Of a DNA stretch of 64,000 nt, positions 4,138-63,903 are shown one piece after another. The DNA lies in contig DAONQC010000006.1 of the NCBI GenBank assembly GCA_035409945.1, positions 12,570 to 76,569 on the forward strand. The letters run 5' to 3'. Source of the DNA: Clostridia bacterium. GTDB taxonomy: Bacteria; Bacillota; Clostridia; Christensenellales; DTU072. A program made the position numbers and the translations under genes. The notes under the pieces were generated by a model. That model saw nothing but the letters and a program-made list of their open reading frames with translations, had not been told where the DNA came from and searched no databases. Each line of letters opens with the position of its first letter. The first letter of the stretch is position 1.

Positions 4138-4968
4138 TTGTACAATATATTAGCAAAAAGAGAACTGGCAAAAGACATTAACGAATATGTAATAGAGGCA
4201 CCAATGGTTGCAAAGAATGCAAAACCTGGTCAGTTTATAATCCTAATCGTTGAAGAAGGTGGAGAAAGAGTTCCCTTTACCATTTGTGACATGAATAAAG
4301 TTTTAGGCACTGTTACGATTTTAGTTCAAACGGTAGGCGCTACAACTGCTAAGCTTGCTAAACTTAAAGCTGGCGATACCATAGCTGAGTTTGTAGGTCC
4401 ACTTGGAAACCCCACTGATTTATCGGGATATAAAAAGGTTATGCTTGTTGGTGGTGGTATTGGCGGTGCCGTCATTTATCCCCAAGCAAAACTTCTTCAT
4501 CAATCCGGCATTGCTCCAGTAACCGTAATGGGAGCACGAAATAGAGATTTATTAATATATGAAAATGAAATGAGAACATATAGTTCAAGATTTTATCCCA
4601 TGACTGATGATGGTTCATATGGAGATAAGGGCTTTGTAACAAATAAGGTAAAAGAACTTTTAGATAATGAAGATTTTGATGTAATACTTGCAGTAGGTCC
4701 GCTACCCATGATGGAAGCTGTCACCAATGTAGCAAGAGATAACCCAGTAAAAGTCATAGTCAGTATGAATAGTGTAATGGTAGATGGAACTGGTATGTGT
4801 GGCTGTTGTAGAGTTACCGTGGGTGGAGAAACTAAATATGCCTGTGTCGATGGACCAGAGTTTGATGGTAAACTCATTGACTTTACAGAAGCTAGAACTA
4901 GAGCCAGCTTTTACAAAGAATTCGAAACTGAAGAAGATTGCAAAATTAGAGGACCAAGGAAAAAATAA
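4138..4968 (+). CDS. nfnA: NfnA-like FAD/NAD(P)-binding, [2Fe-2S] oxidoreductase subunit (PyrK/ferredoxin-NADP reductase-like)
   Basis: TTG start 7 nt after GGAGG gives (M)YNILAKRELAKDINEYVIEAPMVAKNAKPGQF, the typical N-terminus of this family. C-terminal CGCCRV...C cluster. The ORF-track start at 4039 lies upstream of the promoter. Confidence 0.8.
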   Translation: MYNILAKRELAKDINEYVIEAPMVAKNAKPGQFIILIVEEGGERVPFTICDMNKVLGTVTILVQTVGATTAKLAKLKAGDTIAEFVGPLGNPTDLSGYKKVMLVGGGIGGAVIYPQAKLLHQSGIAPVTVMGARNRDLLIYENEMRTYSSRFYPMTDDGSYGDKGFVTNKVKELLDNEDFDVILAVGPLPMMEAVTNVARDNPVKVIVSMNSVMVDGTGMCGCCRVTVGGETKYACVDGPEFDGKLIDFTEARTRASFYKEFETEEDCKIRGPRKK

Positions 4969-5180
4969 AGATTTTAGATATCCTGTAATAATCCTTGGTC
5001 GATAGACATACGCAAAGACTTCGAAACTTGGGAAGACTGCAAAATATTGGATCAAGAAAAAATAATGCTTTGTTAATAGACATGCGTTTCTAAAGAATAG
5101 GAAACCGAGGAAGACCATAAAATTAGAGGACCGAGAAAAAATAGAGATTAAGATATCCAGTAATAATACTTGGGTAGTGG
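4918..5180 (+). repeat. 3' echo of nfnA: real 3' end plus two degenerate tandem copies
   Basis: Units start at 4918, 5017 and 5095 (spacing 99 and 78 nt). EFETEEDCKIRGPRKK* is re-read as DFETWEDCKILDQEK... and *ETEEDHKIRGPRKN... Confidence 0.85.
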
Positions 5181-5198
5181 AAATAAAAGAGGATAAAT

Positions 5199-6569
5199 AT
5201 GGCAATACAGAAAAGAAATAAACCTTCAGAACTTAACCCTAATGTTAGGAATAAAAACTTTGAAGAAGTGACTAGAGTATTTACTGCCGAAATGGCTGTG
5301 AATGAAGCAACTAGATGCTTGCAATGTAAGGCAAAACCTTGCGTTAGTGGATGCCCAGTAGGTATAGATATCCCAGCCTTTATAGCAAAGATAAAAGCTA
5401 GTGATTTTGATGGTGCAGCAGATGTAATAAGTGAAGCAAATTTACTTCCTTCCATATGTGGAAGAGTATGCCCCCAAGAGACTCAATGTGAGGCGCGTTG
5501 TGTGCTAAATAAAATGGGAGAACCTGTCGCAATAGGAGCTCTTGAAAAATTCATAGGTGATTACAAACTGGCAAGAGGAATTAAAACTGAACCAGTCAAA
5601 AAGATTGGTAGAAGAGTTGCAATAGTTGGAAGTGGACCTGCTGGATTGACATGCGCTGCAGATCTTGCAAGAGAAGGTTTTGAGGTTACAATATTTGAAG
5701 CATTTCAAAGACCAGGCGGAGTATTAACTTACGGAATACCGGAGTTTAGGCTTCCAAAGCGTGTAGTTCAGAATGAGATAAAGACACTTAAAGAACTGGG
5801 AGTGGTCATAAAATGTAATGTTGTCGTGGGCAAAACTGTAATGTTAAATGAGCTCCTCGAAGAGTACAATGCAGTCTTCATAGGCACCGGTGCAGGACTG
5901 CCGACCTTCCAAGGGATACCTGGAGAAAACTTACCTGGGGTATATAGTGCAAATGAATACTTAACAAGAGTAAACCTTATGGAAGCTAGAAAAGAAGGTA
6001 GTGCGACTCCAGTATATAGAGGTAAAAAAGTTGTTGTAGTAGGCGCTGGTAATGTAGCTATGGATAGTGCAAGAACAGCTATAAGAATGGGTGCTGACGA
6101 AGTATCAATTGTATACAGAAGATCTAGAAAAGAAATGCCTGCAAGGCTAGAGGAAATCCACCATGCTGAAGAGGAAGGAATTAAGATGTTACTCCTTACC
6201 AATCCTGTTGAAGTTTTAGGTGAAAAGAAGGTTGAAGGTATACGGTGTATTAAGATGGAACTGGGCGAACCTGACGATAGAGGAAGGGCAAGACCTATTG
6301 AAATCAAAGGTAGCGAGTTTGATATAGAGTGTGACCAGTTAATTATGGCAATTGGGACTAGCCCAAACCCACTGCTTCATAAAGCAACTCCCGATCTTGA
6401 TGTTACAAATAGAGGGATAATAATAACCAATGAAGACGGATTAACATCCATTCCTAATGTATATGCAGGAGGAGACGCAGCAACGGGAGCTGCAACAGTA
6501 ATTTTAGCTATGAGCGCTGGAAGAAAGGCAGCAAAAGCTATAAAAGAATCACTGTTGAAGACAGAGTAG
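5199..6569 (+). CDS. nfnB: NfnB / glutamate-synthase small-subunit-like NADPH oxidoreductase (2x[4Fe-4S], FAD)
   Basis: CxxCxxxPC and CPxxxxC Fe-S motifs, VAIVGSGPAGL and VVVVGAGNVAMD dinucleotide folds. Adjacent to nfnA. Confidence 0.85.
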   Translation: MAIQKRNKPSELNPNVRNKNFEEVTRVFTAEMAVNEATRCLQCKAKPCVSGCPVGIDIPAFIAKIKASDFDGAADVISEANLLPSICGRVCPQETQCEARCVLNKMGEPVAIGALEKFIGDYKLARGIKTEPVKKIGRRVAIVGSGPAGLTCAADLAREGFEVTIFEAFQRPGGVLTYGIPEFRLPKRVVQNEIKTLKELGVVIKCNVVVGKTVMLNELLEEYNAVFIGTGAGLPTFQGIPGENLPGVYSANEYLTRVNLMEARKEGSATPVYRGKKVVVVGAGNVAMDSARTAIRMGADEVSIVYRRSRKEMPARLEEIHHAEEEGIKMLLLTNPVEVLGEKKVEGIRCIKMELGEPDDRGRARPIEIKGSEFDIECDQLIMAIGTSPNPLLHKATPDLDVTNRGIIITNEDGLTSIPNVYAGGDAATGAATVILAMSAGRKAAKAIKESLLKTE

Positions 6570-6620
6570 TCTTTATTTGAATATGCAGGAAAAGAATTAT
6601 TGTTAAAGACTGAGTGGCTC
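6542..6620 (+). repeat. 3' echo of nfnB (one copy)
   Basis: AAAAGAATCACTGTTGAAGACAGAGTAGTC (includes the stop) is repeated 48 nt later as AAAAGAATTATTGTTAAAGACTGAGTGGCTC. Confidence 0.7.
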
Positions 6621-6805
6621 CTATCCTTAGCGCATAGATGTGTAGAGATATTCTAGCTGTAATCTAAACTGCGAGCGATAAAGAATAATAATAAAAGCAA
6701 GAAGCATAGGATAAAGGCAGTAAAGGCTTCGGAGGTAAAATAACTTCAATTCATAAAAATCATTAATAAATTAGATTTGTAAAACGTTTACATGTATATA
6801 AAACA

Positions 6806-8215
6806 ATGGAAAAAAAGATATTTAGAGACAAAAAGGAAAAGTGGTATAGACTAGATTCGTCTGCAGATATGTATACTATGAGTTTATCTAGAGTTACACA
6901 AAGTAACTTTAGAATTACTGCCGAAATGAAAAAAACGGTAGATCCTAATCTTTTACAACAAGCACTAGAAATCACATATACTAGATATCCTTCTTTTAAA
7001 GTCCATTTACGCAAAGGACTATTTAGATTCTACTTTGAAGAAAATAATAGTAAACCTGTAGTTTTTCCGAGCTCTGGTATATTTATGGAAAACATGGACT
7101 TTCGGAAAAACAATAGATATGTCATAAGAGTTTCTTACTTTGAAAGCAATATAATAGCTGATTATTTCCACGGATTAACCGATGGGACAGGTGCAATAGA
7201 GTTTTTTAAAACCCTCATATATACCTACTTAAAACTCTCTGGGGAAAATATATTAGAAACTGATAATATAAAGGTCCCTGGCTCGGATATAGACCCCGAA
7301 GAGATGGAAGATGCGACCGCTAAATATTTTAAAGACTTTCCTTTAAACGACAAGGCTATTGCTTCAATGACAGGTAAAAACTCCATATACATAAAAGACA
7401 AACCACTTGTGCGTCCTGGTTTTGGCGTGATTAGAGGCTATGTAGACGCATCTAAGATTAAAGATCTTGCAAAGAAATACGATTGTAGTATAACCGAATA
7501 TTTAGCCGCATTAGCCTTAATTTCCATTAACTCAACATTTGTGAAAAGTGGTGACAAGAAAAACCTCAATGTAATGATTCCGGTCAATTTAAGAAATATT
7601 TTTCCTTCAAAGACACTACATAACTTTACAACGCTAGTTCGGTGCGAACTTGATCAACATAAAGTTGAGCCTGACATGCAAGCATATGTAGATGTAATAA
7701 AGGAAGATTTAAGAAAAGGGGTAGCAGATCACGATTTATTAAATAAAAAGTTATCCATTGCAGCACTTATGGCTAAAAAGATATATTTACGCCTTATGCC
7801 CAGCATGTTTAAAATGATATTTATAAAAGTTCCAAAAACTCCACTCATTAGACCAAGGCAATCCCTAATCTTATCAAATCTTGGGATATTTAAAGTACCT
7901 GATGATGTGGGGAGACACATAAAGAGTGTAGCATTTAATGTAAATGTAAGTAGTAAAACTCCCATCAATGTTGGTGTTTTAACGCATAATGGTATTGCCT
8001 GCATAAGCTTTACAAACCAGATTTCAAATACTGAATTTGAAAGAGAGTTCTTTACTCGTTTAGTGAAAGAAGGCGTAGAGGTTAAAATCTCCTCCAATAA
8101 CCGTATTGAATCAGATAATCAAGAAAGAAGCCGTAGAGGAAGAATAGCCATTAAAAAAGATTATTTGATAGAAAAGAAAAACCAGATTATAAAGAAAAAA
8201 CCCGAAACCAAATAA
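6806..8215 (+). CDS. Condensation-domain-like acyltransferase (HxxxD family)
   Basis: HGLTDGTG catalytic-type motif and about 470 aa length. N-terminal WYRLDSSADMY pattern typical of clostridial alcohol-acetyltransferase-like proteins. Confidence 0.6.
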   Translation: MEKKIFRDKKEKWYRLDSSADMYTMSLSRVTQSNFRITAEMKKTVDPNLLQQALEITYTRYPSFKVHLRKGLFRFYFEENNSKPVVFPSSGIFMENMDFRKNNRYVIRVSYFESNIIADYFHGLTDGTGAIEFFKTLIYTYLKLSGENILETDNIKVPGSDIDPEEMEDATAKYFKDFPLNDKAIASMTGKNSIYIKDKPLVRPGFGVIRGYVDASKIKDLAKKYDCSITEYLAALALISINSTFVKSGDKKNLNVMIPVNLRNIFPSKTLHNFTTLVRCELDQHKVEPDMQAYVDVIKEDLRKGVADHDLLNKKLSIAALMAKKIYLRLMPSMFKMIFIKVPKTPLIRPRQSLILSNLGIFKVPDDVGRHIKSVAFNVNVSSKTPINVGVLTHNGIACISFTNQISNTEFEREFFTRLVKEGVEVKISSNNRIESDNQERSRRGRIAIKKDYLIEKKNQIIKKKPETK

Positions 8216-8250
8216 CATAAATTTAGCGTGACTCAATAAAGTTGGATTTA

Positions 8251-8290
8251 ATACCAGTAATGACTATGTGTTGTTGCTGGTATTTTTATT
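8251..8290 (+). terminator. Rho-independent terminator after the acyltransferase gene
   Basis: ATACCAG (8251-8257) / CTGGTAT (8277-8283) stem followed by TTTTATTTG. Confidence 0.65.
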
Positions 8291-8413
8291 TGCTTATTTT
8301 CCAAAACAAATCAATGTCCGCTTTTAGGGACGCCCAGTATGTCATAATATTTCTATAGGCTAAATTAGGATTATTTTTCGTAATTAATATATGAAGTTAG
8401 CAGGAGGCTTAAA

Positions 8414-8599
8414 ATGAAGAAGATGATAACAAATGACATTAAAAATGCATTTAATGAATATTATAAAAGGCATAAAAAAGGCGATAAGAGCATAAAAAAC
8501 ATCTTGTTTTTAAGTAGCTTCAATATCTGGAAAGCAACAACTGGATGTAAAAAACATTTGCTTCTATCAAATGACTTGAAAAATCAATTTATGATGTAA
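8414..8599 (+). CDS. Hypothetical small basic protein (61 aa)
   Basis: AGGAGG 7 nt upstream of the ATG. No recognisable motif. Confidence 0.3.
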   Translation: MKKMITNDIKNAFNEYYKRHKKGDKSIKNILFLSSFNIWKATTGCKKHLLLSNDLKNQFMM

Positions 8600-8650
8600 A
8601 TCCTGATATAGAGCTAACCATACAATAGTAAAAAAACTGAAATACACAAA

Positions 8651-8706
8651 GTAGTGTTGCTAACCATCTTACTGGTTACATTCAAACGATATTATACGAG
8701 GTAAAA
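8651..8706 (+). promoter_or_regulatory. Conserved hairpin 5' leader, copy A (upstream of LRR gene)
   Basis: GTTGCTAACCA-TCTTAC-TGGTTACATTCAAACGATATTATACGAGGTAAAAATG. Inner stem 8661-8666 / 8673-8678. Confidence 0.7.
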
Positions 8707-9561
8707 ATGAAAAGAAATTTAGATCTTAAAGCTATGTACGAAAAACATGCTTCTACATATCAAAAAATTATGGGAAAAATAAAAGGTAGAAATGTTGAGT
8801 ACTATACTGCGAATAGTGAAGACTGGAATGAAGTTTTGGAAAAAGTAGGCTTTTTTAAAACAGACAATATAGAGGCAGTGATTGCACATAAAGGCTCTAG
8901 ACCACTGGTAATTCAAATGAAAGAAACTTGCGAAGATATAGAGCAAGCATTACTACCTTCCATAGGTGATATACTTAGTTTTTCTGGAATAAAAGCCAAA
9001 TTTGATGGCAATGAATTATCCTTTATGGTTAATTACAATATATATGAAAATCTAGTCTTTTTTGATGAGATTGCATTCTACATATTTAGAGGCGATTATA
9101 AACTAGATGAAGAGGATGGTGTATATTACACTAAAGATGGATTTGTTTATATAAAAGACCTTGGTCGTGCTTCAGCGCTTGGATATGTATATATCCCCGA
9201 AGGTGTTAAGTGTATAGTCGATTATGCATTTTTCGGAAGTAGTTCTCTAGAATTTGTTATTATTCCAAGTAGTGTAGAAAGAATAGGTAGTGCAGCTTTT
9301 TTAAATTGTTATAGTTTAAACGCCATTTTTTACGAAGGAACAAAAGAAGAGTGGGACCAAGTTACCATAAGCCAAGATGGAACTAGAGATTTTGATGAAG
9401 CAAAACTATATTACTACAGCGAGACTGAACCACCCCTAAATTCATCCGGTACAGATTATGGTGATAATTATTGGCGATATTCTGAAAAACCACATAGACA
9501 TAAAAACATAGCCATAGATATAATGCTTGAGGACATGCCAATAGAAGTTTGGGAAAAATAA
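8707..9561 (+). CDS. BspA-type leucine-rich-repeat protein
   Basis: IPEGVKCIVDYAFFGSSSLEFVIIPSSVERIGSAAFLNCYSLNAIFYEGTKEEW repeats. No signal peptide. Confidence 0.7.
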   Translation: MKRNLDLKAMYEKHASTYQKIMGKIKGRNVEYYTANSEDWNEVLEKVGFFKTDNIEAVIAHKGSRPLVIQMKETCEDIEQALLPSIGDILSFSGIKAKFDGNELSFMVNYNIYENLVFFDEIAFYIFRGDYKLDEEDGVYYTKDGFVYIKDLGRASALGYVYIPEGVKCIVDYAFFGSSSLEFVIIPSSVERIGSAAFLNCYSLNAIFYEGTKEEWDQVTISQDGTRDFDEAKLYYYSETEPPLNSSGTDYGDNYWRYSEKPHRHKNIAIDIMLEDMPIEVWEK

Positions 9562-9799
9562 TTGCTTTAGTTAGGAAGGGAAGACAGATTCTGACCTCTT
9601 CGGAGTGAAAAATAACAGATAGTTTAGCATTAAAAAAGACGGTTTGTAATGCCAAGATTGGTATGGGAAAACAACAAATTAGATGTAGGATGAAAAATAC
9701 AGTTTATCTGCCAGAATCATTATTTAGAGAACTTAATTGATGTTTTTCTAAAAGGTTCATTTAATTGTATAATCTAAGGGAAGGATTCAAAATAAATAT

Positions 9800-9858
9800 A
9801 TAATGTTACTAACCATATACACTGGTTAAATTCAAAAACATTATTATACGAGAAACAT
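9800..9858 (+). promoter_or_regulatory. Conserved hairpin 5' leader, copy B (upstream of HipA-like gene)
   Basis: Outer stem AATGTT (9802-9807) / AACATT (9837-9842); inner stem TAACCA (9810-9815) / TGGTTA (9823-9828); then ATTATACGAG. A TATAAT lies at about 9766. Confidence 0.7.
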
Positions 9859-10767
9859 ATGATTGATTTTACAAATTGCAAATTATTATATAAAGCATAT
9901 AGCGGTGCTAATGGAAAGAAAATCTCCATAGAGTACGAAGGACAGCAATATATGCTAAAATTCCCACTTCGTGTAAAAAATATGGCAACGCAATTGTCAT
10001 ATAGTAACAGTTGTTACAGTGAACATATCGGAAGTAGTATATTTAATATGCTTGGAGTCCAAGCTCAAGAAACTATACTTGGCACATATTTGGTTGGTGA
10101 TAAAACAAGATTAGTTTGCGCTTGTTTAGATTTCACGGGTGATAACAAGCACTTCTATGATTTTTGTGCCATTAAAAACACGGTACTTGATTCTACGACA
10201 AGTGGAACTAGTACAGATCTTTATGACATTATAGATACTATCGAAAAGCAAAAATATGTAGACCCTATTTGTTTATCGGAACATTTTTGGAATATGTTTG
10301 TAGTAGATGCTTTTCTTGGTAATTTTGATCGTCATAACTGCAACTGGGGCTTTTTGATAGATGAAAAGACTGGCGAAACAACAATCGCCCCTGTAATTGA
10401 TTGTGGTAGTTGTTTGTTATCACAAGCTGATGAAAGAATTATGACAAAAATTATGACCAATGAAGATGAACTAAATGCGCGTATTTTCACATTTCCTACT
10501 TCAGCTATTAAGCAAAATGGAAGAAAACTTAATTATTATGATTTTTTAACATCTACAGAAATTATAGATTGTCTTAATGCAGTTAATCGTATTGTGCCTC
10601 GGATTGATTTAGGACAAATTAATGAGTTTATAGACAACATTGATGGAACCTCTTCACCTCAAAAGGAGTTTTATAAATATTACCTAAACGCTCGTTATGA
10701 TAACATCCTAGTTCCTGCGTATGAGTTCGCAAAGGCGCAAGATAGAGGCCCATCTTTAGGTCGATAA
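9859..10767 (+). CDS. HipA-like Ser/Thr kinase domain protein
   Basis: GNFDRHNCNWGF (DRHxxN catalytic loop) and IDCGSCL. No adjacent HipB-like gene. Confidence 0.6.
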   Translation: MIDFTNCKLLYKAYSGANGKKISIEYEGQQYMLKFPLRVKNMATQLSYSNSCYSEHIGSSIFNMLGVQAQETILGTYLVGDKTRLVCACLDFTGDNKHFYDFCAIKNTVLDSTTSGTSTDLYDIIDTIEKQKYVDPICLSEHFWNMFVVDAFLGNFDRHNCNWGFLIDEKTGETTIAPVIDCGSCLLSQADERIMTKIMTNEDELNARIFTFPTSAIKQNGRKLNYYDFLTSTEIIDCLNAVNRIVPRIDLGQINEFIDNIDGTSSPQKEFYKYYLNARYDNILVPAYEFAKAQDRGPSLGR

Positions 10768-11173
10768 ATATGCTTTTTGCACATTGATTTACTAGGGATA
10801 AATTTAAGTTATTCAAAGTCTTAAAAACTGTTTTGATGTGTTTATATAAAGGTTAAACAAACGGATTCACATTTGCTAATAAAAAGTGTCTATTTTATCT
10901 AACATTTCCAAAAGGTCACGCGCTGAGTAGTGCTGGAAGACATCATACTAGAACTGCATCCGTTGGAGTATTTAAGATTAGAGGTAAATGCCGATTTTTA
11001 TGAAAGCGCTTTGGAATAAGTATTAATAACTCACTTGCGAAAGTTTCTTCAGGATTAGAAGTTTATCCTTCGGTAACAAGTACGCGGAAGGATGATGAAT
11101 ATAAGATTTTTTGGTAGTAAAAGTCTTACTTTTTTGGTAATAGCCAGTTATAATGCTAGTAGAAGGAGCTCTA

Positions 11174-12427
11174 ATGAGTACTATAAATTATAGAAAAAGA
11201 ATAATAGAATCTCAAATTATTAAAAAGATGTCATACAGTGGTGGCATCGTCATTGAAGGTACCAAATGGGTTGGAAAGTCGACTACAGCCAGTATCTTTG
11301 CTAATACAGTTATAAAACTAAAAGATCAGTTGATGAAAAAGAAATATCAAATTCTAGCTACCATATCAAAAGATGATGTATTGGAAGGTGAAAAGCCTAT
11401 ATTATTTGCCGAATGGCAAGAAGTTCCTGAAATTTGGGACTTTATCAGGCTCGATATTGATGATAATAGTTACAAAGGAGCATATCTTTTAACAGGCTCA
11501 ACAAAAAAACAAAGTGTAAAAACTGCTCATACAGGAACGGGAAGGATAAATTCGATTTATATGCGTCCTATGAGTTTATATGAAAGTGGTGAATCTAGTG
11601 GTTTAATTTCTTTAAAGAGTTTATTTTCAAAACCACAACTATCTCCAGTTATGTCTAATGTTACAATCGATGATATAGCGCATTATATTTGCAGAGGAGG
11701 ATGGCCTGGAAGTTTGGATTTGAATGAAGAGCTGCAGTTAGAGGTTCCTAAGGATTTACTTGAAACTATTATTACAAGAGATGTTGATGAAGTTGATGGA
11801 GTAAGCAAAGACAAAGAGAAATTAAGAAAAATAATTAAAAGCTATGCAAGAAACATTTCCACATTAGCCACAAACTCAACGATTTATAAAGATCAGTCCT
11901 ATGAAGATATTGTAAATGCCAAGACTTTCGATGCATATATGAGTGCGTTAAAAAGATTATATATCGTGGAAGATGTTTTACCGTGGTCACCAAACATTAG
12001 AAGTTCTGCTAGACTTAGAAAAGGTGTAAAAAAACAATTTGTAGATCCTAGTATTGCAGTTGCAGCTTTAGGATTATCGCCGAATAGATTGAAAAAAGAT
12101 TTTGAAACATTTGGCTTTTTATTTGAATCTATTGCAACAAGAGACATTAGAGTGTATGCAGAGGAAATGGGTGGAACGGTTTATTACTATAATGATACGA
12201 CTGGTCTTGAAGTTGATTTGATTGTTGAGTTAAAAGACGGAAGTTGGTGTGGAATTGAAGTCAAATTAGGAGAAAATGAGGTTGAAAAAGCAAGTAGTAA
12301 TCTAAAAAAACTAGCAAATTTATCTACTGCGAAACCATCCTTTCTTATTATATTAACAAATACAAAAATGGCTTATCAAAGACCAGATGGCGTTTATGTA
12401 ATTCCTCTTGGCTGTCTAAAACCTTAA
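11174..12427 (+). CDS. AAA+ ATPase, DUF4143 family
   Basis: Walker A-like GTKWVGKST, LLTGS, and C-terminal EVDLIVE...IEVK nuclease-like block. TATAAT (11149-11154) and GAAGGAG favour the ATG at 11174 over 11153. Confidence 0.85.
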   Translation: MSTINYRKRIIESQIIKKMSYSGGIVIEGTKWVGKSTTASIFANTVIKLKDQLMKKKYQILATISKDDVLEGEKPILFAEWQEVPEIWDFIRLDIDDNSYKGAYLLTGSTKKQSVKTAHTGTGRINSIYMRPMSLYESGESSGLISLKSLFSKPQLSPVMSNVTIDDIAHYICRGGWPGSLDLNEELQLEVPKDLLETIITRDVDEVDGVSKDKEKLRKIIKSYARNISTLATNSTIYKDQSYEDIVNAKTFDAYMSALKRLYIVEDVLPWSPNIRSSARLRKGVKKQFVDPSIAVAALGLSPNRLKKDFETFGFLFESIATRDIRVYAEEMGGTVYYYNDTTGLEVDLIVELKDGSWCGIEVKLGENEVEKASSNLKKLANLSTAKPSFLIILTNTKMAYQRPDGVYVIPLGCLKP

Positions 12428-54975: not shown

Positions 54976-55020
54976 TATTTCTCTCCTGATAATTTGATGA
55001 TAAATGGTCTCTTGGCTAAA

Positions 55021-56161: not shown

Positions 56162-56185
56162 ATAAGTTAAGTTTAATTTATTCCG

Positions 56186-57631
56186 CTATGGCATTCGTCG
56201 TGGTAACTGCCGGTTAGGTGTTTGTGGTGAGTAGGCTGGTTTTGTTCCAGCAAGTGCATATGCTCCTTTCTTAGGAACTCTACTCATACCAGGTTGCCCA
56301 GCTTTGGTTGCTTTTGTATCGCCAGCATATACGTGTGGCTTATTGCCTTTTGGTACATATGCCACAGTCTTTGCAGGTCTGTTCTTAAAGAAGAAGGGTA
56401 GAATAGTTAGCAGGAATGGAATTATTAGTAACAAGGCAAATAATAGATTGAAAGTAATTGTTGATTCGCCGTATATGAAGTCAGTCCAATACATTGTAAA
56501 GTAGTTTGAAAAAGCTTGTTTTATATCTGCCGAAGAAACTGATTTTATTTCCAAAAATGCTGGGAATATCATAGTTAATACGCCACAAATAAGGATTAAA
56601 ATGGGCCATAAATGCAGTCTTCTAGATGTATAACTAAAGAGCCTACCTACGTTTATAAATAGTTCAACAACGCAGGCTATAATCATAATAACTAGAGAGT
56701 AAATAGTACCATAAGTTGCTATTCTCTTTACGATAGCTACATTATTATATTTTCCATCTTCGCCTTTTACTATTTCAATTTCATCTGCACGATCTCTTAT
56801 GTACCTCATGTAGTACCAGCTAGGTCCTTGCATTGCATCTAAGTTTTCAATTATATCTACTCTATTTTTGCTGAACAATTCAGTTCTAAATAGGGCTTTA
56901 ATTACATCAACTACAGTTATATCAATTGATTGCATATGTAATTGGTCATATAATAAAACTTTATCTGGGGCAAATGAATCTTCGTCTTTATATACATCAC
57001 CATAAGTGAATTTTTGCTCGTCGTGAATAAAAGTTCCTTTTGGCCATTCGCCATTATTAGGGACTAAAAGGTCATTGGCGCCCGATTCTAGTTTAAAATA
57101 TCCAATTGAGGTTAATGATAACTTGGAGTTAGCGGACAGTGTGGTTTCTATTGGTTCTAATTGAGTTGGTGTTAAGTATACAGAAGAGAATATTAGCGCG
57201 GCAAAAACAAGTATTAAAATAATCATAATGATGGGTAGGGCAGCACCAAAGTATCTGGATTTAGAAAAATATGTTTCAAAGTCAAAATCAACATCTGAAT
57301 AAGCATCAGCATATTTTGAAAGTTGCTTATCTCTTTTTGCCTTTATCTCGGCTTGATACATATGGTAGCTTTTGAGTTCAGCTGCTAATATGTCTGGATC
57401 ATAATCCCCACGTTGCACTTTGTCCAAAAGTGTTTGATATTCAGCACGTGTATGACGAAGCTTAGCCTTTGCATAAGGACTATCGAGCTTTCGTATCTCA
57501 TACCTCATTTCTTTGATTTTACGTTTTAAAAGTTCAACAAGTATTGCCTCGTCTCTTTCTGTCCAAGTAGCATTGAACATTTTAGCCTCGGTCAAAGGTT
57601 GTTGCTTTTTGCTGTATATTGATCTTGCCAT
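56186..57631 (-). CDS. Hypothetical polytopic membrane protein with Pro-rich C-terminus
   Basis: Long ORF with several TM helices. GGAG RBS 6 nt before the ATG at 57631. No recognisable motif. Confidence 0.5.
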   Translation of the reverse strand: MARSIYSKKQQPLTEAKMFNATWTERDEAILVELLKRKIKEMRYEIRKLDSPYAKAKLRHTRAEYQTLLDKVQRGDYDPDILAAELKSYHMYQAEIKAKRDKQLSKYADAYSDVDFDFETYFSKSRYFGAALPIIMIILILVFAALIFSSVYLTPTQLEPIETTLSANSKLSLTSIGYFKLESGANDLLVPNNGEWPKGTFIHDEQKFTYGDVYKDEDSFAPDKVLLYDQLHMQSIDITVVDVIKALFRTELFSKNRVDIIENLDAMQGPSWYYMRYIRDRADEIEIVKGEDGKYNNVAIVKRIATYGTIYSLVIMIIACVVELFINVGRLFSYTSRRLHLWPILILICGVLTMIFPAFLEIKSVSSADIKQAFSNYFTMYWTDFIYGESTITFNLLFALLLIIPFLLTILPFFFKNRPAKTVAYVPKGNKPHVYAGDTKATKAGQPGMSRVPKKGAYALAGTKPAYSPQTPNRQLPRRMP

Positions 57632-57852
57632 CATCAACTCCACTAAAAACGCGCGCATGTTGTTTAACGCGATATATTATGTATTATATAATACACGAAA
57701 ACAAAATACAAGTAATAAAGGGAAAACCAAAAAAGCTAGACTTTCAAAATATTTACTAGTCGGTTAAACGGCAGTTTTGTAAATGCAACTGCAACTTATA
57801 GTTAAGTCTTGGAGCTTAATTTAGCGCAAGAAACATATTTGCTTTTTCGACG

Positions 57853-58008
57853 CTACACATTGAACCTGAACAGGATGACGTCGCCTTCACGAACGACATA
57901 GTCTTTTTCCACTTAATGCGTATTGCTTACAGTTCGATGTTTGAAATATACTCAATATTCCAAAGCTATACATTGAACCTAAACATTGAACCTAAACATT
58001 GAACCTGA
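57853..58008 (-). repeat. 3' echoes of ychF at two scales (58-nt copy 139 nt downstream; 13-nt unit x3 across the stop codon)
   Basis: 57853-57910 is about 93% identical to 57992-58047. ACATTGAACCTAA repeats at 57970, 57983 and 57996. Confidence 0.9.
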
Positions 58009-59077
58009 ATAGGATGACATCGCCTTCACGAACGACATAGTCTTTTCCTTCGGAACGAACTTTTCCTTTTTCTTTAGCGACATTGTACGAGCCACATTCA
58101 AGCAAGGTGTCATAGTCTATGACCTCTGCACGAATAAAACCACGCTCAAAATCGGTATGGATGGTGCCAGCAGCTTGAGGAGCCTTAGTTCCAATAGGTA
58201 TGGTCCAAGCTCTAGATTCGGTGGGGCCGGCAGTTAAGAAACTCATAAGTCCTAGTAGTTTGTATGATTTTTTGATAAGCTTTTCTAGACCAGTGGTTTC
58301 AATACCTAATTCTTTAAGAAATTCAGCCCTCTCTTCGGGAGGTAAATCAGCAAGTTCTGCTTCTAGTTTTGCTTTTAAAACCACGACCTCGCTACCTTCG
58401 TTCTCAGCATATTCTTTAACTTTTTGAACATAGTCATTGTCTTCAGAATCATCTTCTGCTATGTTTGCGCAGTATATAACTTTCTTGGTTGTTAAGAGAA
58501 ATAGTGAATTTACAAAAGGTTGTTCTTCTTCTTTGATTGGGGCAAGTCTAGCACATTTCCCGTCGGACAAAGTATTGTATATTTTTTCAAGTATGGCATA
58601 CTCATCTTTATACTTTTGTTCACCGCTTTTCATCATTGTGCGAGTTTTGTCCATTCTTCTATTAAGGATTTCAAGGTCGGAAAGTATGAGTTCTAAATTG
58701 ATGTCTTCGATATCTCTAATGGGGTCTGTTGAGCCTGCGACATGGGTAATGTTGGGGTCGTCAAAACATCTTACAACATGAACTATTGCATCTACTTCTC
58801 TTATGTGAGATAAAAATTTATTACCTAGACCTTCGCCTTTACTAGCTCCTTTGACAAGGCCAGCAATATCTGAAAATTCTATATATGTATGAGTTACTTT
58901 CTTGCTGTTATAAAGTGCTGCTAATTTATATAATCTTTCATCTGGAACTTCTACCACTCCGATATTTGGGTTGATGGTACAAAAGGGGTAGTTTGCTACC
59001 GCTGCTCCAGCTGAAGTGAGTGCATTAAATATGGTGCTTTTTCCTACATTAGGAAGTCCAACAATACCTAATTTCAT
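57992..59077 (-). CDS. ychF: Ribosome-binding ATPase YchF
   Basis: GIVGLPNVGKST P-loop, TGS-like C-terminal domain ending EGDVILFRFNV. Confidence 0.95.
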   Translation of the reverse strand: MKLGIVGLPNVGKSTIFNALTSAGAAVANYPFCTINPNIGVVEVPDERLYKLAALYNSKKVTHTYIEFSDIAGLVKGASKGEGLGNKFLSHIREVDAIVHVVRCFDDPNITHVAGSTDPIRDIEDINLELILSDLEILNRRMDKTRTMMKSGEQKYKDEYAILEKIYNTLSDGKCARLAPIKEEEQPFVNSLFLLTTKKVIYCANIAEDDSEDNDYVQKVKEYAENEGSEVVVLKAKLEAELADLPPEERAEFLKELGIETTGLEKLIKKSYKLLGLMSFLTAGPTESRAWTIPIGTKAPQAAGTIHTDFERGFIRAEVIDYDTLLECGSYNVAKEKGKVRSEGKDYVVREGDVILFRFNV

Positions 59078-59106
59078 TTATTTTTTCACCTCGTATAATA
59101 TATTAA

Positions 59107-59241
59107 ATTCTTCGTTTAGGAAGGTTATGCTTTATTAAATTTATCCATATTAGCAACAAAGTTTTTACGAGCCTCTCTAGTATTATCTACTTTCTTCCAA
59201 GGGATTGACAGCTCTTCTACAATCTCTGCCGTATACCTTTG
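59107..59241 (-). repeat. 3' echo of the sigH-like gene (135 nt, 148-nt period, reading frame preserved)
   Basis: The echo translates QRYTAEIVEELSIPWKKVDNTREARKNFVANMDKFNKA*, versus the real QGYTYAEIAEELSIPQKKVDNTIMASKKKIAANMDKLNKA*. Confidence 0.9.
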
Positions 59242-59272
59242 ATACTATATCAAGCTCTTCGTTGTAGGAAGG

Positions 59273-59842
59273 CTATGCTTTATTAAGCTTATCCATATTT
59301 GCTGCAATTTTTTTCTTACTAGCCATTATGGTGTTATCTACTTTCTTTTGAGGAATCGACAGTTCTTCTGCAATCTCTGCATATGTATATCCTTGTACGT
59401 ATAGAGACCAAACTTCAAGTTGAAGGGGGGATAGAATATCTTTTAATATGTGGGAAACTGCGCTAGCCCGTTGCTTAGTTAATAGGTTTTGATATGGGTC
59501 TATTGTGTCGTCTGCAGTATCGTCTTTTACCTCAAAACGAGCGCTAGGGACAATTCGGTTTTTCTTGCGAAGTATGGTAAATAGTCTATTTTTCATACAG
59601 CGCTCGGAATAGTAATACAAACTATTATATTTATCATAGTCGAAAGTTTCTACTGCTTTGACAAAAGCAACCATCGCTTCCTGGACTAAATCATCTTTAT
59701 CTATGACAGGGGATATAAAAGGTTTACTAACATCAATACAAACTTTATGAATAGCTGCTTCATATTTTTTTATGAGCTGATTTAAAGCTTCTTTATCGCC
59801 TTTTTGTGCACGGCTTATTAATGTTTTTTCATCTACTTTCAT
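59273..59842 (-). CDS. sigH: Sigma-70-family sigma factor, SigH-like by synteny
   Basis: Region 2 (DDLVQEAMVAFVKAV) and region 4 HTH (YTYAEIAEELSIPQKKVDNTI). Located downstream of rlmB as in Bacillus. Confidence 0.7.
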   Translation of the reverse strand: MKVDEKTLISRAQKGDKEALNQLIKKYEAAIHKVCIDVSKPFISPVIDKDDLVQEAMVAFVKAVETFDYDKYNSLYYYSERCMKNRLFTILRKKNRIVPSARFEVKDDTADDTIDPYQNLLTKQRASAVSHILKDILSPLQLEVWSLYVQGYTYAEIAEELSIPQKKVDNTIMASKKKIAANMDKLNKA

Positions 59843-59933
59843 ACTGTTCTCCAGATTGTAGAGGGGCTTACAACCTCTATCTCTAAAAGTATATCACATT
59901 ACTTTTAAACCTTATCAGAACTAATTTAGCAAG

Positions 59934-60665
59934 TTATATCTTATTATTTCGTTGTCTAACTGCTTCGTATAATAAAATTCCAGTTGCAACAGAAGCATTT
60001 AGTGAATTAATCTTTCCTAGTTGTGGAAGGGACACAACTAAATCGGATAGTTTTCTTGGTAGTTCGTGTAATCCTTCACCTTCTCCGCCAATAACTAGAG
60101 CAATATTGCCAGTCATATCAGAAGTGAAAGCATTTTCACCATTCATATCAGCTGCGATTATTTTCACACCTTGTTGTTTTAAGTATCTAATAGCATCATT
60201 GATGTTTGTTACTTTTGCTACTGGGACATGAGCAGTCGCACCAGCGCTAGTTCTAATTACAATTTCAGTGACGCTTGCGCTTCTGTGTTTTGGGATGATG
60301 ACAGCACTCGCTCCTGAACAGTCGGCTACCCGAATTATAGCCCCTAGGTTATGTGGATCTTCAACTCCGTCTAAAAGTACAAATACAGCTGGCTTATCGC
60401 CACTAAGGGCTTTTTGTACAACGTCTTCAAACACTGCATAAGTAAAATCAGTGGTAATAGCCATAATGCCTCTGGCTCTACCCGTTTCCGACTTTGCTTT
60501 GAATGCTTGCTCATCTAAAATCATCACCTTAACGCCTTGTTTTCTTGCAAGAGCAATTGCTTCATTTGTAGAGCGTTCAAAGTTGCCTTTTTGAACATAC
60601 AATGTTTCTACGGTTACATCGCCTTTTAAAGCTTCTAGTACCGCATTTCTTCCTTCTAATAACAT
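59934..60665 (-). CDS. rlmB: 23S rRNA 2'-O-ribose methyltransferase, RlmB/TrmH (SpoU) family
   Basis: DGVEDPHNLGAIIR, LVIGGEGEGL, and SLNASVATGILLYE SpoU motifs. mrnC-rlmB synteny. Confidence 0.85.
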   Translation of the reverse strand: MLLEGRNAVLEALKGDVTVETLYVQKGNFERSTNEAIALARKQGVKVMILDEQAFKAKSETGRARGIMAITTDFTYAVFEDVVQKALSGDKPAVFVLLDGVEDPHNLGAIIRVADCSGASAVIIPKHRSASVTEIVIRTSAGATAHVPVAKVTNINDAIRYLKQQGVKIIAADMNGENAFTSDMTGNIALVIGGEGEGLHELPRKLSDLVVSLPQLGKINSLNASVATGILLYEAVRQRNNKI

Positions 60666-60722
60666 AATTCCCTCGTATACAACACTGTTATGAATTTAAC
60701 CAATATATGGTTAACAATATTG
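60666..60722 (-). promoter_or_regulatory. Conserved hairpin 5' leader, copy D (upstream of rlmB)
   Basis: Sense strand reads CAATATTGTTAACCATATATTGGTTAAATTCATAACAGTGTTGTATACGAGGGAATTATG. Inner stem 60696-60702 / 60708-60714. The outer stem is kept through G-U pairs. Confidence 0.7.
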
Positions 60723-60760
60723 TTTATATTTTATTTAAATCGTAGCTTAACGCTAATGCT

Positions 60761-61180
60761 TTAATTCGTGTTCGGGTATGCAATCTCCATTAAGCTTGCT
60801 AGTCTTTCATCTTGCCCAGTGAGATATAGATAACCAATTAGACCTTCAAAACCAGATGCTAGGTTATATTCTGCTACTGAGCTATGTTTAGGTACATTGG
60901 GGTTACAGGAGTTTCTACATCTTTTAAAAATGGTAGATTCGTCTTCAGTCAGTATGCTTTCGATGTTTTTAATAGCAACAGCTTGTGCGGGAGCACTGAC
61001 TTCCTTAGAGGCAATACTATGTAAAACCCTAATTTTACATTTTTTACATGTGGCAAGTCTGGACCTTACATATACTGAATGAACCGAGTCCCCAACATAC
61101 GCGAGCACATCTGCAGAAAGCAGGGCAGCTTCTTCATTTTTTAGGGGTTGTTTATGCCTTGGCATATATTGTTCATTCAT
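60761..61180 (-). CDS. mrnC: Mini-ribonuclease III
   Basis: LAYVGDSVHSVYVR RNase III-like signature, about 140 aa, synteny with rlmB. Confidence 0.85.
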   Translation of the reverse strand: MNEQYMPRHKQPLKNEEAALLSADVLAYVGDSVHSVYVRSRLATCKKCKIRVLHSIASKEVSAPAQAVAIKNIESILTEDESTIFKRCRNSCNPNVPKHSSVAEYNLASGFEGLIGYLYLTGQDERLASLMEIAYPNTN

Positions 61181-61419
61181 AAAAAAGATTATACATTAAT
61201 GTGTAAAAACTAACAATTCAAATGAGTTATGTAGAGCACATTGACACAAAGTAGTGGAGTATATAACTTTTTTACAACTAAAATCACTGACGGTTATCTG
61301 CTTATAGATTTTAGATGTTACAAATAAATGCTTGTCATTTATCTATTTGAAACTTGTAGGCGTTTACCAGTTAGGCACTTATTAGGTATGTGTCTGGCAG
61401 TTGGTCATCATTGCTTTTG

Positions 61420-62916
61420 TTATTTACTAAGTTCTTGTAGCTTTTGCCAAATCCTTACCATTGCTAGTGTATCGAGTTTGCAATAGTCTAAAAGGTTTTG
61501 CCTGGCAATCGCTTGTTCGTCTTCTGGCATATCTTTTATTTGTTTAAAAATCCTCATAGCTTCTTCTCCGTTATGAACGCCTTCTAAATTGTCATAATTT
61601 AATTCGGGGTCATTGGGGAACATAGCTGGGAGCACGCTTTTTATGGACATGCTACCACCCATCTCTTTTATGTAGAGATAACCGTTTGTGAATACGTCTA
61701 ATAAATCTACAAAATTGCTATGGATTTCCATAAGGGGTTCAGCAAGATCAAGAAATAGTCCTGCTAACTCGTTTATTATTCTTCTTTCAAAGCTTTTATT
61801 ATATGCAATAATACAGGCATCTTTTGGGATATCAGCAACAAGCTTTTCAGCAATAATACGTCTTGAATCTTCACCAGAAATGCCTAAAAATTCTTTGTGC
61901 TGTAATTTTTCATCTTTACGCTCGATATAATGTAAGGAATATTGGAATGGAATTTGTCCATACGGCTTTGTATTATCAAATGGCGGAATAATATTTTGTT
62001 CGGTTTCAAAGTCTAAAAAGTAGAGCGGATATTTAAGTTGTGATAAAAACTCTTTGATTCCCTCTTTGTCAATAAAGGGCTCGTCGTTTGTTTCAGATAG
62101 AACTTGAAATCTTCTTATAATGTGACTGTTAACATATGAGTCATCATAAAAGTCGCTATATTTAACTTTACCTTCGCTATAATAACTAAATTTCTTTGCG
62201 GTAGTTAATCTATATAAATCGAAAACGGAAGGGATAGGGAGGTGTTTACTACAATACTGCCAGAATGTACAAGAATATGGTGAAAAACATGCTTCAGATA
62301 AATCTATATTTGGTTCATCTGTTAGCTGTAGAACTTTCTCTGCCTGTGCGAGATTATTTTCAACATCAAGTTTTGCTACTTCTACTTCTGAAGAGCAGTC
62401 GGTAATTGTAAATAATTGATTAATATCTAGCTCTCCCATTCGAACATAATCAGAGTTTATTGTTACTAAATAAGTTTTGGTTACGTTTACTCCGCAATGT
62501 TCTAGAACGTATTTTTGGTAAGCGATGTCAATGTAGTATACGTTTTTATCAGACTTTGTGGCGCTTTTTACTTCATATATTGCATAGCCTTTCCCATCTT
62601 TTTTCAAGATGTCAACAGCGCAGTATAACCCGTTATAGTCAAATGCAGCTTCCGCAATTACATTTTGTCCTTCCGATAAAAAACGCTTAGTATTTTCAAT
62701 CATTGTTGATAAATCTATTTTACCCTCTGCAGTATATGCTGTAGTTTCAACGAAATCGCCAAATAGCCCCATAGCTAAGTCGCCGACCACATTTCCTTCA
62801 GCAAACAGCGCACGTAGATTATCATCTATGACTCTTTCTTCTGGTTTGTTTTGAGCTAGCCACGTTATTTTTGGGCACTGGCAAAATTCTACATATCTTG
62901 TTTTAGAAAATCTCAT
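61420..62916 (-). CDS. DUF2779-family protein (Cas4/PD-(D/E)xK-like N-terminus)
   Basis: MRFSKTRYVEFCQCPKITWL start, AIYEVKS nuclease-like motif, and Cys cluster CFSPYSCTFWQYC. Confidence 0.75.
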   Translation of the reverse strand: MRFSKTRYVEFCQCPKITWLAQNKPEERVIDDNLRALFAEGNVVGDLAMGLFGDFVETTAYTAEGKIDLSTMIENTKRFLSEGQNVIAEAAFDYNGLYCAVDILKKDGKGYAIYEVKSATKSDKNVYYIDIAYQKYVLEHCGVNVTKTYLVTINSDYVRMGELDINQLFTITDCSSEVEVAKLDVENNLAQAEKVLQLTDEPNIDLSEACFSPYSCTFWQYCSKHLPIPSVFDLYRLTTAKKFSYYSEGKVKYSDFYDDSYVNSHIIRRFQVLSETNDEPFIDKEGIKEFLSQLKYPLYFLDFETEQNIIPPFDNTKPYGQIPFQYSLHYIERKDEKLQHKEFLGISGEDSRRIIAEKLVADIPKDACIIAYNKSFERRIINELAGLFLDLAEPLMEIHSNFVDLLDVFTNGYLYIKEMGGSMSIKSVLPAMFPNDPELNYDNLEGVHNGEEAMRIFKQIKDMPEDEQAIARQNLLDYCKLDTLAMVRIWQKLQELSK

Positions 62917-63338
62917 TATATAAAGCCTCCTTTGCTTTTTCTATGTAATTAATTCAATTTTATATCATACACTTGTATTAATCTTTTAGTGTATTTACGA
63001 ATATTGTATTCACTTAACCTAACTTGTAATTATGATATTATATCACGCTAGTTTTTATTATAGCGACTAAGATTATTTCATCCATTCAAAATCTTACACC
63101 CAGCCATTTCAACTCTAGTCAATTTAACCAGTATGCTATATGCTACTGCTATTAATCCCGAGCTGAAACTATCGTTTTCATTATGAGGGGCAAACGGGTC
63201 ATAATGCTCGCTGAATTAATTATACACAAAACAATGTCCTAAAATTAAGACATTGAAAAAATGGTCAAATTTGCCAATTTTTAATTACAAAAGAGTGATG
63301 GAATATAATGTTTATTAGGTGTTCAGGGCGTGTGCGTC

Positions 63339-63558
63339 GTTATTGAAGTGGCTCGTAAAGAGGCCTAAAGGCATGCCATAATGCTTGCTAACTATTACGA
63401 GAGCATTGGTGTAGGATAGCATATGCTGTGTGGCTAAGCTACTTTATCTTGGATTGAATTGGCTCTCAAAGAATCTAAAGGCAGGTAGCAATGCTTGCTA
63501 ATCATTACGAGAGTATTGGTGTAGGATTCGAATGTTGTGTGGCTAAGCTACTTTATCT
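63339..63558 (-). repeat. 3' echoes (2 copies, about 110-nt period) of the 63559-63903 gene
   Basis: (G)TTATTGAAGTGGCTCGT(C)AAAGA(A/G)G(T/C)CTAAAGGCATG at 63340 and 63559. A more diverged copy, GGATTGAATTGGCTCTCAAAGAATCTAAAGGCAGG, lies at 63451. Confidence 0.8.
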
Positions 63559-63903
63559 TTATTGAAGTGGCTCGTCAAAGAAGTCTAAAGGCATGTCTTT
63601 TATCGAGGTTGCTACCACTAGATTCAAAATGATGGAGATTACACAATATAAGCATATTGCTAAAATAGGTATGTCTATTTTTCTTAAGAATGTCCTGAAT
63701 TTGCCAACTGGTTTTACTTTAGTTTGAGTTTCATTAACTTGCGTTTCGGCATCCATAACCTCCGCTTGCGCTTCGGTAGTGGCAACCAAATCCTTATCTT
63801 CTACTTGACTAGTCGATTCGGTTTGTGAAGCGTCCTGAGCGATTGGGCCATATTGATTTTCAGCATATATATCTTCTAGTTGATATTTGGCAGTAGTGCA
63901 CAA
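63559..63903 (-). CDS. Hypothetical acidic protein with C-terminal TM anchor (the 5' end may extend beyond the listed Met)
   Basis: ORF with the TM segment IPILAICLYCVISIILNLVVA. No motif recognised. Confidence 0.4.
   Translation of the reverse strand: MCTTAKYQLEDIYAENQYGPIAQDASQTESTSQVEDKDLVATTEAQAEVMDAETQVNETQTKVKPVGKFRTFLRKIDIPILAICLYCVISIILNLVVATSIKDMPLDFFDEPLQ

Follow-up and report, generated by a model that had tools for sequence, protein, structure and literature searches.

Genes in a 64,000-nucleotide (nt) stretch of DNA from an uncultured Clostridia bacterium of biogas and anaerobic-digester metagenomes (GenBank assembly GCA_035409945.1, contig DAONQC010000006.1, positions 12,570 to 76,569; here called the window) are frequently followed by degenerate copies of their own 3' ends. 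In the examined part of the contig, about one in five genes (~20%) trails copies of its own last 15-130 bases, and we refer to these copies as echoes. Our preferred explanation, to which we would give a probability of roughly 70%, is that short-range tandem duplication occurs at an elevated rate in this lineage, or is retained there unusually often, that the echoes are its neutral and decaying by-products, and that the surviving duplications have been filtered by selection. The sequence examined was ~77 kb of one contig. The window lies near the replication origin, with gidB, parB, gyrB and gyrA found, and the gene names given in a preliminary description of the window agree with the Pfam domains of the ten proteins that were scanned.

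That preliminary description had claimed that degenerate tandem copies of gene ends lie past the stop codons, and the claim was borne out both by ten robust cases and by a comparison with control genomes. We aligned the last 150 nt of each gene to the next 400 nt by the Smith-Waterman method for the 50 testable open reading frames (ORFs) of the window, and as a cross-gene control each gene end was aligned to the downstream regions of all the other genes. Eight of the 50 genes scored 18-57, where the cross-gene control reached 17.5 at its 99.9th percentile and 22 at most. The control loci were 79 loci of other Firmicutes fetched via a YchF scan, with 1010 testable genes in 1.42 Mb; a GltX scan of metagenomes gave 2 loci only, and for the SigH-like protein of the window there are hardly any database relatives. 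When the same automated test was applied to these 1010 genes, it found two matches at 3' ends and eight at 5' ends. The rate of 3' echoes was 8/50 genes in the window versus 2/1010 in the controls (Fisher p=5.8e-10), an excess of ~90-fold, and the echoes are beyond chance. An excess of this size supports the unusual mutational regime that had been suggested for this DNA. ORFs of at least 100 amino acids (aa) cover 80% of the window and 79% of the control loci.

A self-blastn search tuned to diverged local direct repeats recovered nearly all of the claimed sites, and Tandem Repeats Finder at default-like stringency detected the youngest arrays only (32901-33067, 57966-58006 and 63340-63593). 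In an array census using one fixed blast search space and a stringent threshold, 13 local arrays were counted in the 64-kb window: 8 straddle 3' ends, 3 are intergenic, 1 is within a gene and 1 is a pair of tRNA-Met genes. The controls presented 2 arrays at 3' ends, 12 intergenic and 7 in-gene per 1.42 Mb. Past window position 64000, the next 5 kb of the contig holds two further 3' echoes, one following a 12TM_1 gene and the other an ABC ATPase gene. The sole strong 3' echo among the 1010 control genes (score 55) is in Selenomonas montiformis (contig L075, 4277-6490), and isolated events of the same kind do therefore occur elsewhere in Firmicutes. The tRNA-Met pair belongs to a tRNA cluster at 51989-52667 (minus strand; Val-TAC, Glu-TTC and two Met-CAT); the two genes score as a local repeat and gave a spurious 108-aa ORF match in the 5' test. 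Between tRNA-Val and tRNA-Glu, a 40-nt unit is also present as two tandem copies (52231-52311).

Detailed alignments gave ten robust 3' echoes and two weak ones. Nine of the robust cases had been listed in the preliminary description, which had missed the tenth, at the end of an alpha/beta-hydrolase gene (39202-40050); the two weak cases, nfnB and ecfT, had also been listed and are probably real. The units are contiguous and head-to-tail, and include the stop codon and spacer, in seven genes. The sigH-like sigma factor gene (stop 59273) has 2.1 copies of a 147-154-nt unit made of ~110-130 nt of gene and ~40 nt of spacer, at 78% identity, ending at the ychF ribosome-binding site (RBS) (59088-59403, minus strand). 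At the end of the pstCA fusion gene (stop 47058), a 102-nt unit composed of 50 nt of gene and 52 nt of spacer is present in two full copies at 77% identity (47009-47197, plus strand), and the spacer part of the first unit (B) resembles that of the second (B'; p=0.03). The hydrolase gene (stop 40050) has 2.2 copies of an 87-nt unit at 68% identity (39969-40162, plus strand), and cysE (stop 55196) has two copies of a 104-nt unit at 70% in the cysE-cysS spacer (55083-55290, minus strand). Three copies in all, with a period of ~75-99 nt and identity of ~80%, are found at the nfnA-like gene (stop 4968; 4907-5173, plus strand), where two downstream copies fill the nfnA-nfnB spacer. The longest series, ~4.7 copies of a 63-66-nt unit, follows the response-regulator gene (stop 49572; 49553-49845, plus strand) and fills the regulator-histidine kinase spacer up to the kinase start. 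Gene 63559-63903 has 2.35-3 copies of a 110-nt unit (38 nt of gene and 72 nt beyond) at 83-90% identity (63300-63596, minus strand; 63337-63596 in the detailed alignment).

The gene for the S component of a predicted energy-coupling factor (ECF) transporter (stop 30377) has copies at +86 and ~+230, with the main alignment at 30282-30422 and a third copy near 30150-30180 (30150-30422, minus strand). Of the two weak cases, nfnB (gltD-like; stop 6569) has an echo of 28 nt at +48 (79%), with a second, older one at +190 (6542-6728, plus strand), and ecfT/CbiQ (stop 25512) shows a 27-nt echo at +173 (81%) with degenerate copies in between (25325-25524, minus strand).

Two arrays have a different anatomy. 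At the end of ychF (stop 57992; 57853-58046, minus strand), a 13-nt unit GTTCAATGTTTAG is repeated 3.2 times across the stop codon, and a 55-nt copy of the gene end (94.5% identity) lies 139 nt downstream. This copy is preceded by 58 nt of unrelated filler, which is not repeated after it; a comparison of the filler with the sequence after the echo showed no similarity (p=0.8). The end of the 438-aa lipoprotein gene (stop 33054; 32901-33067, minus strand) has 2.6 copies of a 65-nt unit at 87% identity, the unit consisting of a 36-nt ancestral segment (A) and a 29-nt filler (B) in the order A-B-A-B-A-rest. The ychF and lipoprotein arrays need either a duplication with insertion of filler, by end-joining or template switching, or two successive events. 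In this respect the plain tandem duplication put forward in the preliminary description holds for most of the events, while these two have the form A-filler-A.

The state of the same sites in two related lineages indicates the direction of the change. Sister A is a Clostridiales metagenome-assembled genome (MAG), JAAZLE01, the nearest GTDB species representative, with a YchF identity of 94% and genes of ~83% nucleotide identity; sister B is represented by GCA_022706925.1 and ADurb.Bin080 (GCA_002070965.1), with a GyrA identity of 74-75%. The comparison took in 29 kb of sister A (L004/L084, L089 and L093) and 22 kb of sister B (L090), and no gene-end echoes were found in either. Their spacers at these sites are shorter by roughly the length of the echo. 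In sister A the sigH-ychF spacer is 60 nt (195 nt in the window), that between the lipoprotein gene and the next gene is also 60 nt (197 nt), the CbiQ (ecfT)-MobB spacer is 139 nt (292 nt), and the S component overlaps the next gene by 17 nt where the window has 234 nt between them. The spacer between the genes for 513-aa and 189-aa proteins, site of a 5' case described below, is 52 nt in sister A and 231 nt in the window. In sister B the nfnA-nfnB spacer is 83 nt (230 nt in the window), that between nfnB and the next gene is 131 nt (236 nt), and the cysE-cysS spacer is 58 nt (148 nt). Echo-free spacers, on the other hand, are equal in length (45/45 and 44/49 nt, sister versus window).

The alignments show how the extra sequence was added. 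The stop codon of the sister A sigma factor gene runs directly into the ychF RBS; in the window, an additional unit of 147 nt is present here, with ~107 nt from the gene end and ~40 nt from the spacer. The single copy at the sister A lipoprotein gene aligns to the last copy of the window, and the alignment extends through the ancestral hairpin downstream, the RBS and the start codon of the next gene; sister A lacks filler B. The ychF end was not found a second time in sister A, where another gene lies downstream and the spacer lengths are not comparable. That gene encodes 410 aa on the opposite strand between ychF and gltX (L084, 4915-6360). The window lineage lacks it, and the ychF-gltX spacer of the window shows no detectable remnant. 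Given the single copies and short spacers in the sisters, the echoes are insertions that arose after the split from sister A, and thus a derived, lineage-specific state.

The copies derive from the gene and not the reverse. It is the gene-proximal copy that encodes the conserved C-terminus, and the YchF terminus, which we take to be canonical for its family, is common to the window and sister A. The downstream copies carry frameshifts, indels and stop-codon changes. Over all echoes, differences between gene and echo fall at codon positions 1/2/3 in the numbers 34/27/57 (48 synonymous and 70 non-synonymous), near the 27/27/46% split expected if the echo mutates freely and the gene changes only synonymously. 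These numbers fit neutral decay of the echoes beside a constrained gene. The identities form a continuous series, from 94.5% (ychF) through 87, 83, 80, 78, 77, 76, 73, 70 and 68% to the detection limit of ~65%, which points to recurrent events and not to a single burst. Taken with the single copies and short spacers of the sisters, the pattern of differences and the identity continuum are as expected from the model first advanced for these repeats, in which recurrent tandem duplication across gene ends leaves the gene intact and a decaying copy outside it.

The echoes were also looked for in independent assemblies. Contigs with the same proteins were obtained from six samples (Logan SRR11811202; JGI 3300009666, 3300009670, 3300036951 and 3300036953; ENA ERZ27257450), covering window positions 1-12515, 20377-41318 and 47992-64000, with the pstCA echo (47009-47197) lying outside all three ranges. 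Within these ranges the contigs were 99.975-100% identical to the window and gap-free across the echoes, which excludes an assembly artefact. The sampled population is nearly clonal, with 4 single-nucleotide polymorphisms per 16 kb. Over 16 kb compared between the window and two other assemblies, one of these four differences is in the response-regulator echo array (49589) and three are in cysS and gltX. The sole indel among the six samples is 1 nt in JGI 3300036951 (L087), outside any echo; it falls in the region corresponding to window 11153-12427 (L087 88-1363) and splits an AAA_14/DUF4143 gene into two ORFs, the gene being intact in the other assemblies.

Duplications at places other than 3' ends were also found. 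The one mirror case at a 5' end that had been reported was seen in the alignment as well: upstream of gene 27800-28369 there are three degenerate copies of the RBS, the start and ~25 nt of the gene, the ATG being lost in each (ATA/AAT) (28345-28600, minus strand). Within coding sequence, the disordered C-terminal tail of the S component contains an in-frame 132-nt (44-aa) tandem duplication (30401-30685, minus strand), and the protein has 313 aa in the window versus 259 aa in sister A. This in-frame repeat looks like the same process, tolerated within a gene. It also provides one case for the idea that echoes are raw material for new C-termini, since sister A lacks the extra 44-aa repeat. Three arrays are wholly intergenic: 94 nt x 2.3 in the gidB/nfnA divergent region (3622-3835), an event of the same class that touches no gene; 33/66 nt x 4.3 between convergent genes (23604-23761); and 55 nt x 2.3 at 34646-34770. 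The spacer at 27622-27799, between the gene for the 189-aa protein and that for the first ABC ATPase, is 178 nt long versus 32 nt in sister A, a gain of 146 nt. It holds no significant echo of either flanking gene, and an internal pair, GTTTGAACCAAATGAA and GTTTACACTAAATGAA, resembles nt 61-81 of the ATPase gene; this spacer may be an old, decayed 5' array.

To account for these observations, we propose that short tandem duplications, with units of 13-180 nt, probably arise everywhere in the genome. For the molecular mechanism we infer replication slippage, microhomology-mediated template switching or end-joining, and an existing duplicate could then expand to 2-5 copies. What is kept would depend on where the unit falls. 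With a unit across a stop codon, the first copy would stay a complete gene with its own stop, and the duplication would be harmless and kept in the downstream spacer. A unit within a gene would be disruptive and purged, unless in frame in a disordered tail as in the S component, and a unit across a start codon would create spurious translation starts and would be purged, or kept only with the ATG mutated as at 28345-28600. Perhaps the many echoes of this lineage are due to altered lagging-strand or flap processing, single-stranded DNA exonucleases or end-joining, but this is a guess. Changes in these functions raise tandem duplication rates.

We compared the positions of the arrays with a placement model, in which the detectable extra copies were removed and units of the observed lengths were set uniformly on the window. 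Under uniform placement, 74.5% of units would fall within genes, 11.4% between genes, 6.2% at 3' ends and 6.3% at 5' ends, and 1.4% would cross an operon junction. Events at 5' ends were nearly absent, with 1 versus 10 at 3' ends (p=0.006). A selective filter fits this rarity of 5' events, the absence of start codons from the sole 5' case, and the position of the young in-gene event, in frame in a disordered tail. Wholly intergenic arrays of the same size class co-occur with the echoes.

Several points weigh against this explanation. Within the tolerated classes, the ratio of 3' to intergenic events was 10:5 where 35%:65% was expected (p=0.013), and it was 8:3 in the window versus 2:12 in the controls (p=0.005). 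Because 3' events exceed both the placement model and the control ratio, the filter alone may not explain the 3' bias, although non-neutral intergenic DNA such as promoters and leaders could lie behind the excess. To attribute the 10:1 asymmetry between 3' and 5' ends to selection is itself a proposal. The A-filler-A structures at ychF and the lipoprotein gene are not made by a single slippage event. Microhomology at the junctions could not be demonstrated: only a 2-nt 'AG' was found, at the 13-nt ychF array, and the older arrays are too diverged to judge. The near-clonal samples are effectively one clone, with no difference in echo length among them, and since ~77 kb of a single contig was examined, any 'genome-wide' statement is an extrapolation.

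The 3' excess invites another explanation, that the mutational mechanism itself targets gene 3' ends, for example by stalling of the fork or of RNA polymerase at termination regions, followed by template switching. A lineage process would then preferentially duplicate the 3' termini of transcription or translation units, through termination-coupled stalling and template switching or end-joining with filler. The two ratios given above, 10/15 against 35% under uniform placement and 8:3 against 2:12 in controls, speak for such targeting, as does the occurrence of two independent events (the 13-nt x 3 array and the 55-nt copy) at the stop codon of ychF. However, wholly intergenic arrays of the same size exist, and much intergenic space is non-neutral, which inflates the expected intergenic share. 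The left boundaries of the units are scattered, from 12 to 131 nt into the genes, the echoes are on both strands, and no terminator-like hairpins were found inside the arrays. An apparent tendency for echoes to end exactly at the stop codon (ychF, pstCA, response regulator and 63559 gene) also dissolved on closer alignment for pstCA and the 63559 gene, since permissive alignment gave a full two-copy unit for pstCA and indicated that the 63559 array probably continues. Targeting of 3' ends seems unlikely to us. If true, gene-end echoes would be a direct genomic footprint of where such a process acts, and would steadily supply new C-terminal tails and lengthen the spacers between cistrons.

For the A-filler-A cases at ychF and the lipoprotein gene, a further possibility is illegitimate or homology-facilitated recombination with DNA of a related strain, so that the displaced copy would be the original end of the recipient gene and its divergence would be allelic. 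Between the 55-nt ychF copies there are three differences, each of them synonymous and at a third position; the 58-nt filler bears no relation to the post-echo sequence; and the lipoprotein filler is absent from sister A. Three differences are nevertheless too small a sample, and polarisation by sister A is ambiguous, one site favouring the gene copy, one the echo and one neither. The other echoes have non-synonymous changes and indels, most are plain head-to-tail with a second unit that includes ancestral spacer, and no foreign-looking tract was identified. As a general reading of the echoes, derivation from an allele by homology-facilitated illegitimate recombination was rejected, given that the 34/27/57 distribution over all echoes fits decay in situ. 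We kept it as a minor rival for the filler cases, with a slim chance of being correct.

The echoes could also be functional RNA or DNA elements under selection, acting as stabilisers in 3' untranslated regions (UTRs) or between cistrons, as exonuclease buffers, or as operon spacers that uncouple translation. All ten robust echoes lie between co-oriented genes, several within operons (nfnAB, pstCA-pstB, regulator-kinase and cysES), and are therefore probably transcribed; a terminator-like hairpin of the 63559 gene (63255-63232) also comes after the array. The 10/10 co-oriented placement is, however, not significant against a background of 82%. Echoes are absent at all orthologous sites in the two sister lineages, no motif is common to the loci, and the copies decay with indels and with differences over all codon positions. 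No Rfam match was found in the echoes, the matches in the window being 4 tRNAs and a molybdenum cofactor (Moco) riboswitch elsewhere. Folding of the echo spacers gave z values of -2.1 to +1.3 (mean -0.24, versus ~-0.85 in other spacers), with no excess over shuffled sequence. The suggestion that the copies serve as 3'-UTR structure or exonuclease buffers thus finds no backing in Rfam, folding, sister conservation or a shared motif, and we hold a function of this kind to be very improbable. Finally, although the organism is uncultured and its sequence was assembled from short metagenomic reads, an artefact of strain mixture or repeat mis-resolution can be given next to no credence, since six samples in three collections agree at 99.975-100% without indels across the echoes, the population is nearly clonal, and copies 6-35% apart with their own indels are unique sequence to an assembler, which had no reason to create them.

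We also considered known classes of repeats. Mycobacterial interspersed repetitive units (MIRU), repetitive extragenic palindromes (REP) and miniature inverted-repeat transposable elements (MITE) are dispersed families with the same sequence at many loci, and repeats of the MIRU and REP/MITE type are 40-100 bp long, often in tandem, and lie in operon spacers, sometimes overlapping stop or start codons. In contrast, each array of the window comes from its own neighbouring gene and no two arrays are alike. No echo matched another locus at E<1e-3, and all-against-all alignments of the units gave a maximum z of 3.75 in 272 comparisons, which is at chance level. A dispersed mobile element was rejected as well: the one shared 12-mer, TAGCAAGCATTG, is confined to the lipoprotein and 63559 arrays and is most readily taken as a coincidence.

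Diversity-generating retroelements (DGRs), with their variable and template repeats (VR/TR), have a ~100-nt copy of the gene 3' end just downstream of the gene. The echoes differ from these in that the differences are not adenine-specific (T>C, A>G and T>G at ychF, and indels with all substitution types at other echoes), the targets are housekeeping genes, many loci are affected within 64 kb, and the stop codon and spacer are part of what is copied. A DGR was accordingly rejected on anatomy. The Pfam assignments of the genes called on the retrieved contigs, which leave out window 41-48 kb, showed no reverse transcriptase, a statement to be read with the fact that no dedicated reverse transcriptase search was made. 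Duplication of the attachment (att) site of an integrative element would put a kb-sized element with an integrase between the two copies, and was rejected: only 48-220 nt separate the copies, this interval contains no ORF, and no integrase turned up in the Pfam assignments that were inspected. CRISPR-like arrays, and a riboswitch or T-box, were ruled out by anatomy and Rfam.

The closest likeness that we found is to Ehrlichia ruminantium. The genome described by Collins et al. in 2005 reportedly has many pseudogenes that are truncated gene fragments associated with repeats. According to a later summary of this work and that of Frutos et al. in 2006, E. ruminantium has many locus-specific tandem repeats of ~100-150 bp in non-coding DNA, which lengthen the intergenic regions (PMC10710844). 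The window likewise has abundant locus-specific tandem repeats concentrated in non-coding DNA, with gene fragments. The two organisms differ in that E. ruminantium is an obligate intracellular alphaproteobacterium with a coding density of ~64%, while the window is from a biogas-reactor Clostridia with an ORF coverage of ~80%, equal to the controls; copy numbers vary between E. ruminantium strains and do not vary here among the near-clonal six-sample assemblies. Furthermore, the window arrays are mostly of 2-3 diverged copies, and their dominant pattern is the gene's own 3' end across the stop codon. The preliminary description was not aware of any earlier account of such a feature, and E. ruminantium is in fact a partial precedent.

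Microhomology-mediated tandem duplications (MTDs) of 3-500 bp arise widely, and selection depletes them from essential genes (PMC8639346). They were described in Schizosaccharomyces pombe, Saccharomyces cerevisiae and Escherichia coli, are described as subclonal and rapidly reverting, and had a detection frequency in E. coli 20-fold below that in S. pombe (PMC8639346). The window duplications resemble MTDs in their size of tens to hundreds of bp, in being local and head-to-tail, and in that the survivors are intergenic, near gene 3' ends or in frame. They are unlike MTDs in being fixed, 6-35% diverged and dense, and two events have filler DNA. Tandem repeats are generally enriched in prokaryotic intergenic DNA (PMC12418385), and a survey of thousands of prokaryotic genomes has them commoner downstream of stops and upstream of starts than within genes. 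That survey gives position-wise coverage only (on average 2.1% genome-wide) and contains no report of a unit that is the gene's own terminus, and the rate here is ~90-fold above controls. We conclude that the pattern is genuine and has strong statistical backing, and that the cause is plausible but unproven.

Some other features of the window may be recorded. A conserved element of ~55 nt was found at 8641-8716, 9801-9857 and 40197-40277, directly upstream of the RBS/start of three genes unrelated to one another (LRR_5, HipA_C and the 40229 gene), and the same element occurs in sister A upstream of a SpoU methylase gene (L084, 2277-2326). Its inverted repeats are nested, in the pattern AATGTTG-C-TAACCAT-N6-TGGTTAA-ATTCA-N-CAACATT, after which come ATTATACGAGG and the ATG. 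No Rfam family matches the element, which may be either an operator bound by a dimeric regulator or a hairpin of the 5' leader.

The Moco/tungsten-cofactor riboswitch (34391-34504, 47 bits) precedes a string of co-oriented genes (23806-34504, minus strand), in the order 438-aa lipoprotein (with a weak Oxidored_molyb match), 453-aa protein (with 408-nt internal repeats), ECF S component (PF09819), phosphodiesterase/metalloenzyme, 189-aa protein, two ABC ATPases, EcfT/CbiQ and MobB. PF00174 and PF09819 are fused in some of the database homologues (P0208 and P0211). This suggests an ECF-type uptake system tied to molybdenum/tungsten cofactor metabolism. The Bacillus gltX-cysE-cysS arrangement carries a T-box; here no T-box leader was found upstream of cysE or gltX (55895-56185 and 57659-57991) by Rfam at the gathering threshold.

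In practice, the echoes can be mis-called as pseudogenes or small ORFs, or suspected as MAG assembly errors, and the comparison of this genome with its two sisters gives a handle on a change in repair or replication that raises tandem duplication. The usual description of bacterial genomes is of a bias towards deletion, by which non-functional DNA is soon lost. The echoes of this lineage instead document short-range duplication as it occurs in nature, together with the selective filter on its products, and they show how operon spacers and C-terminal tails can grow.

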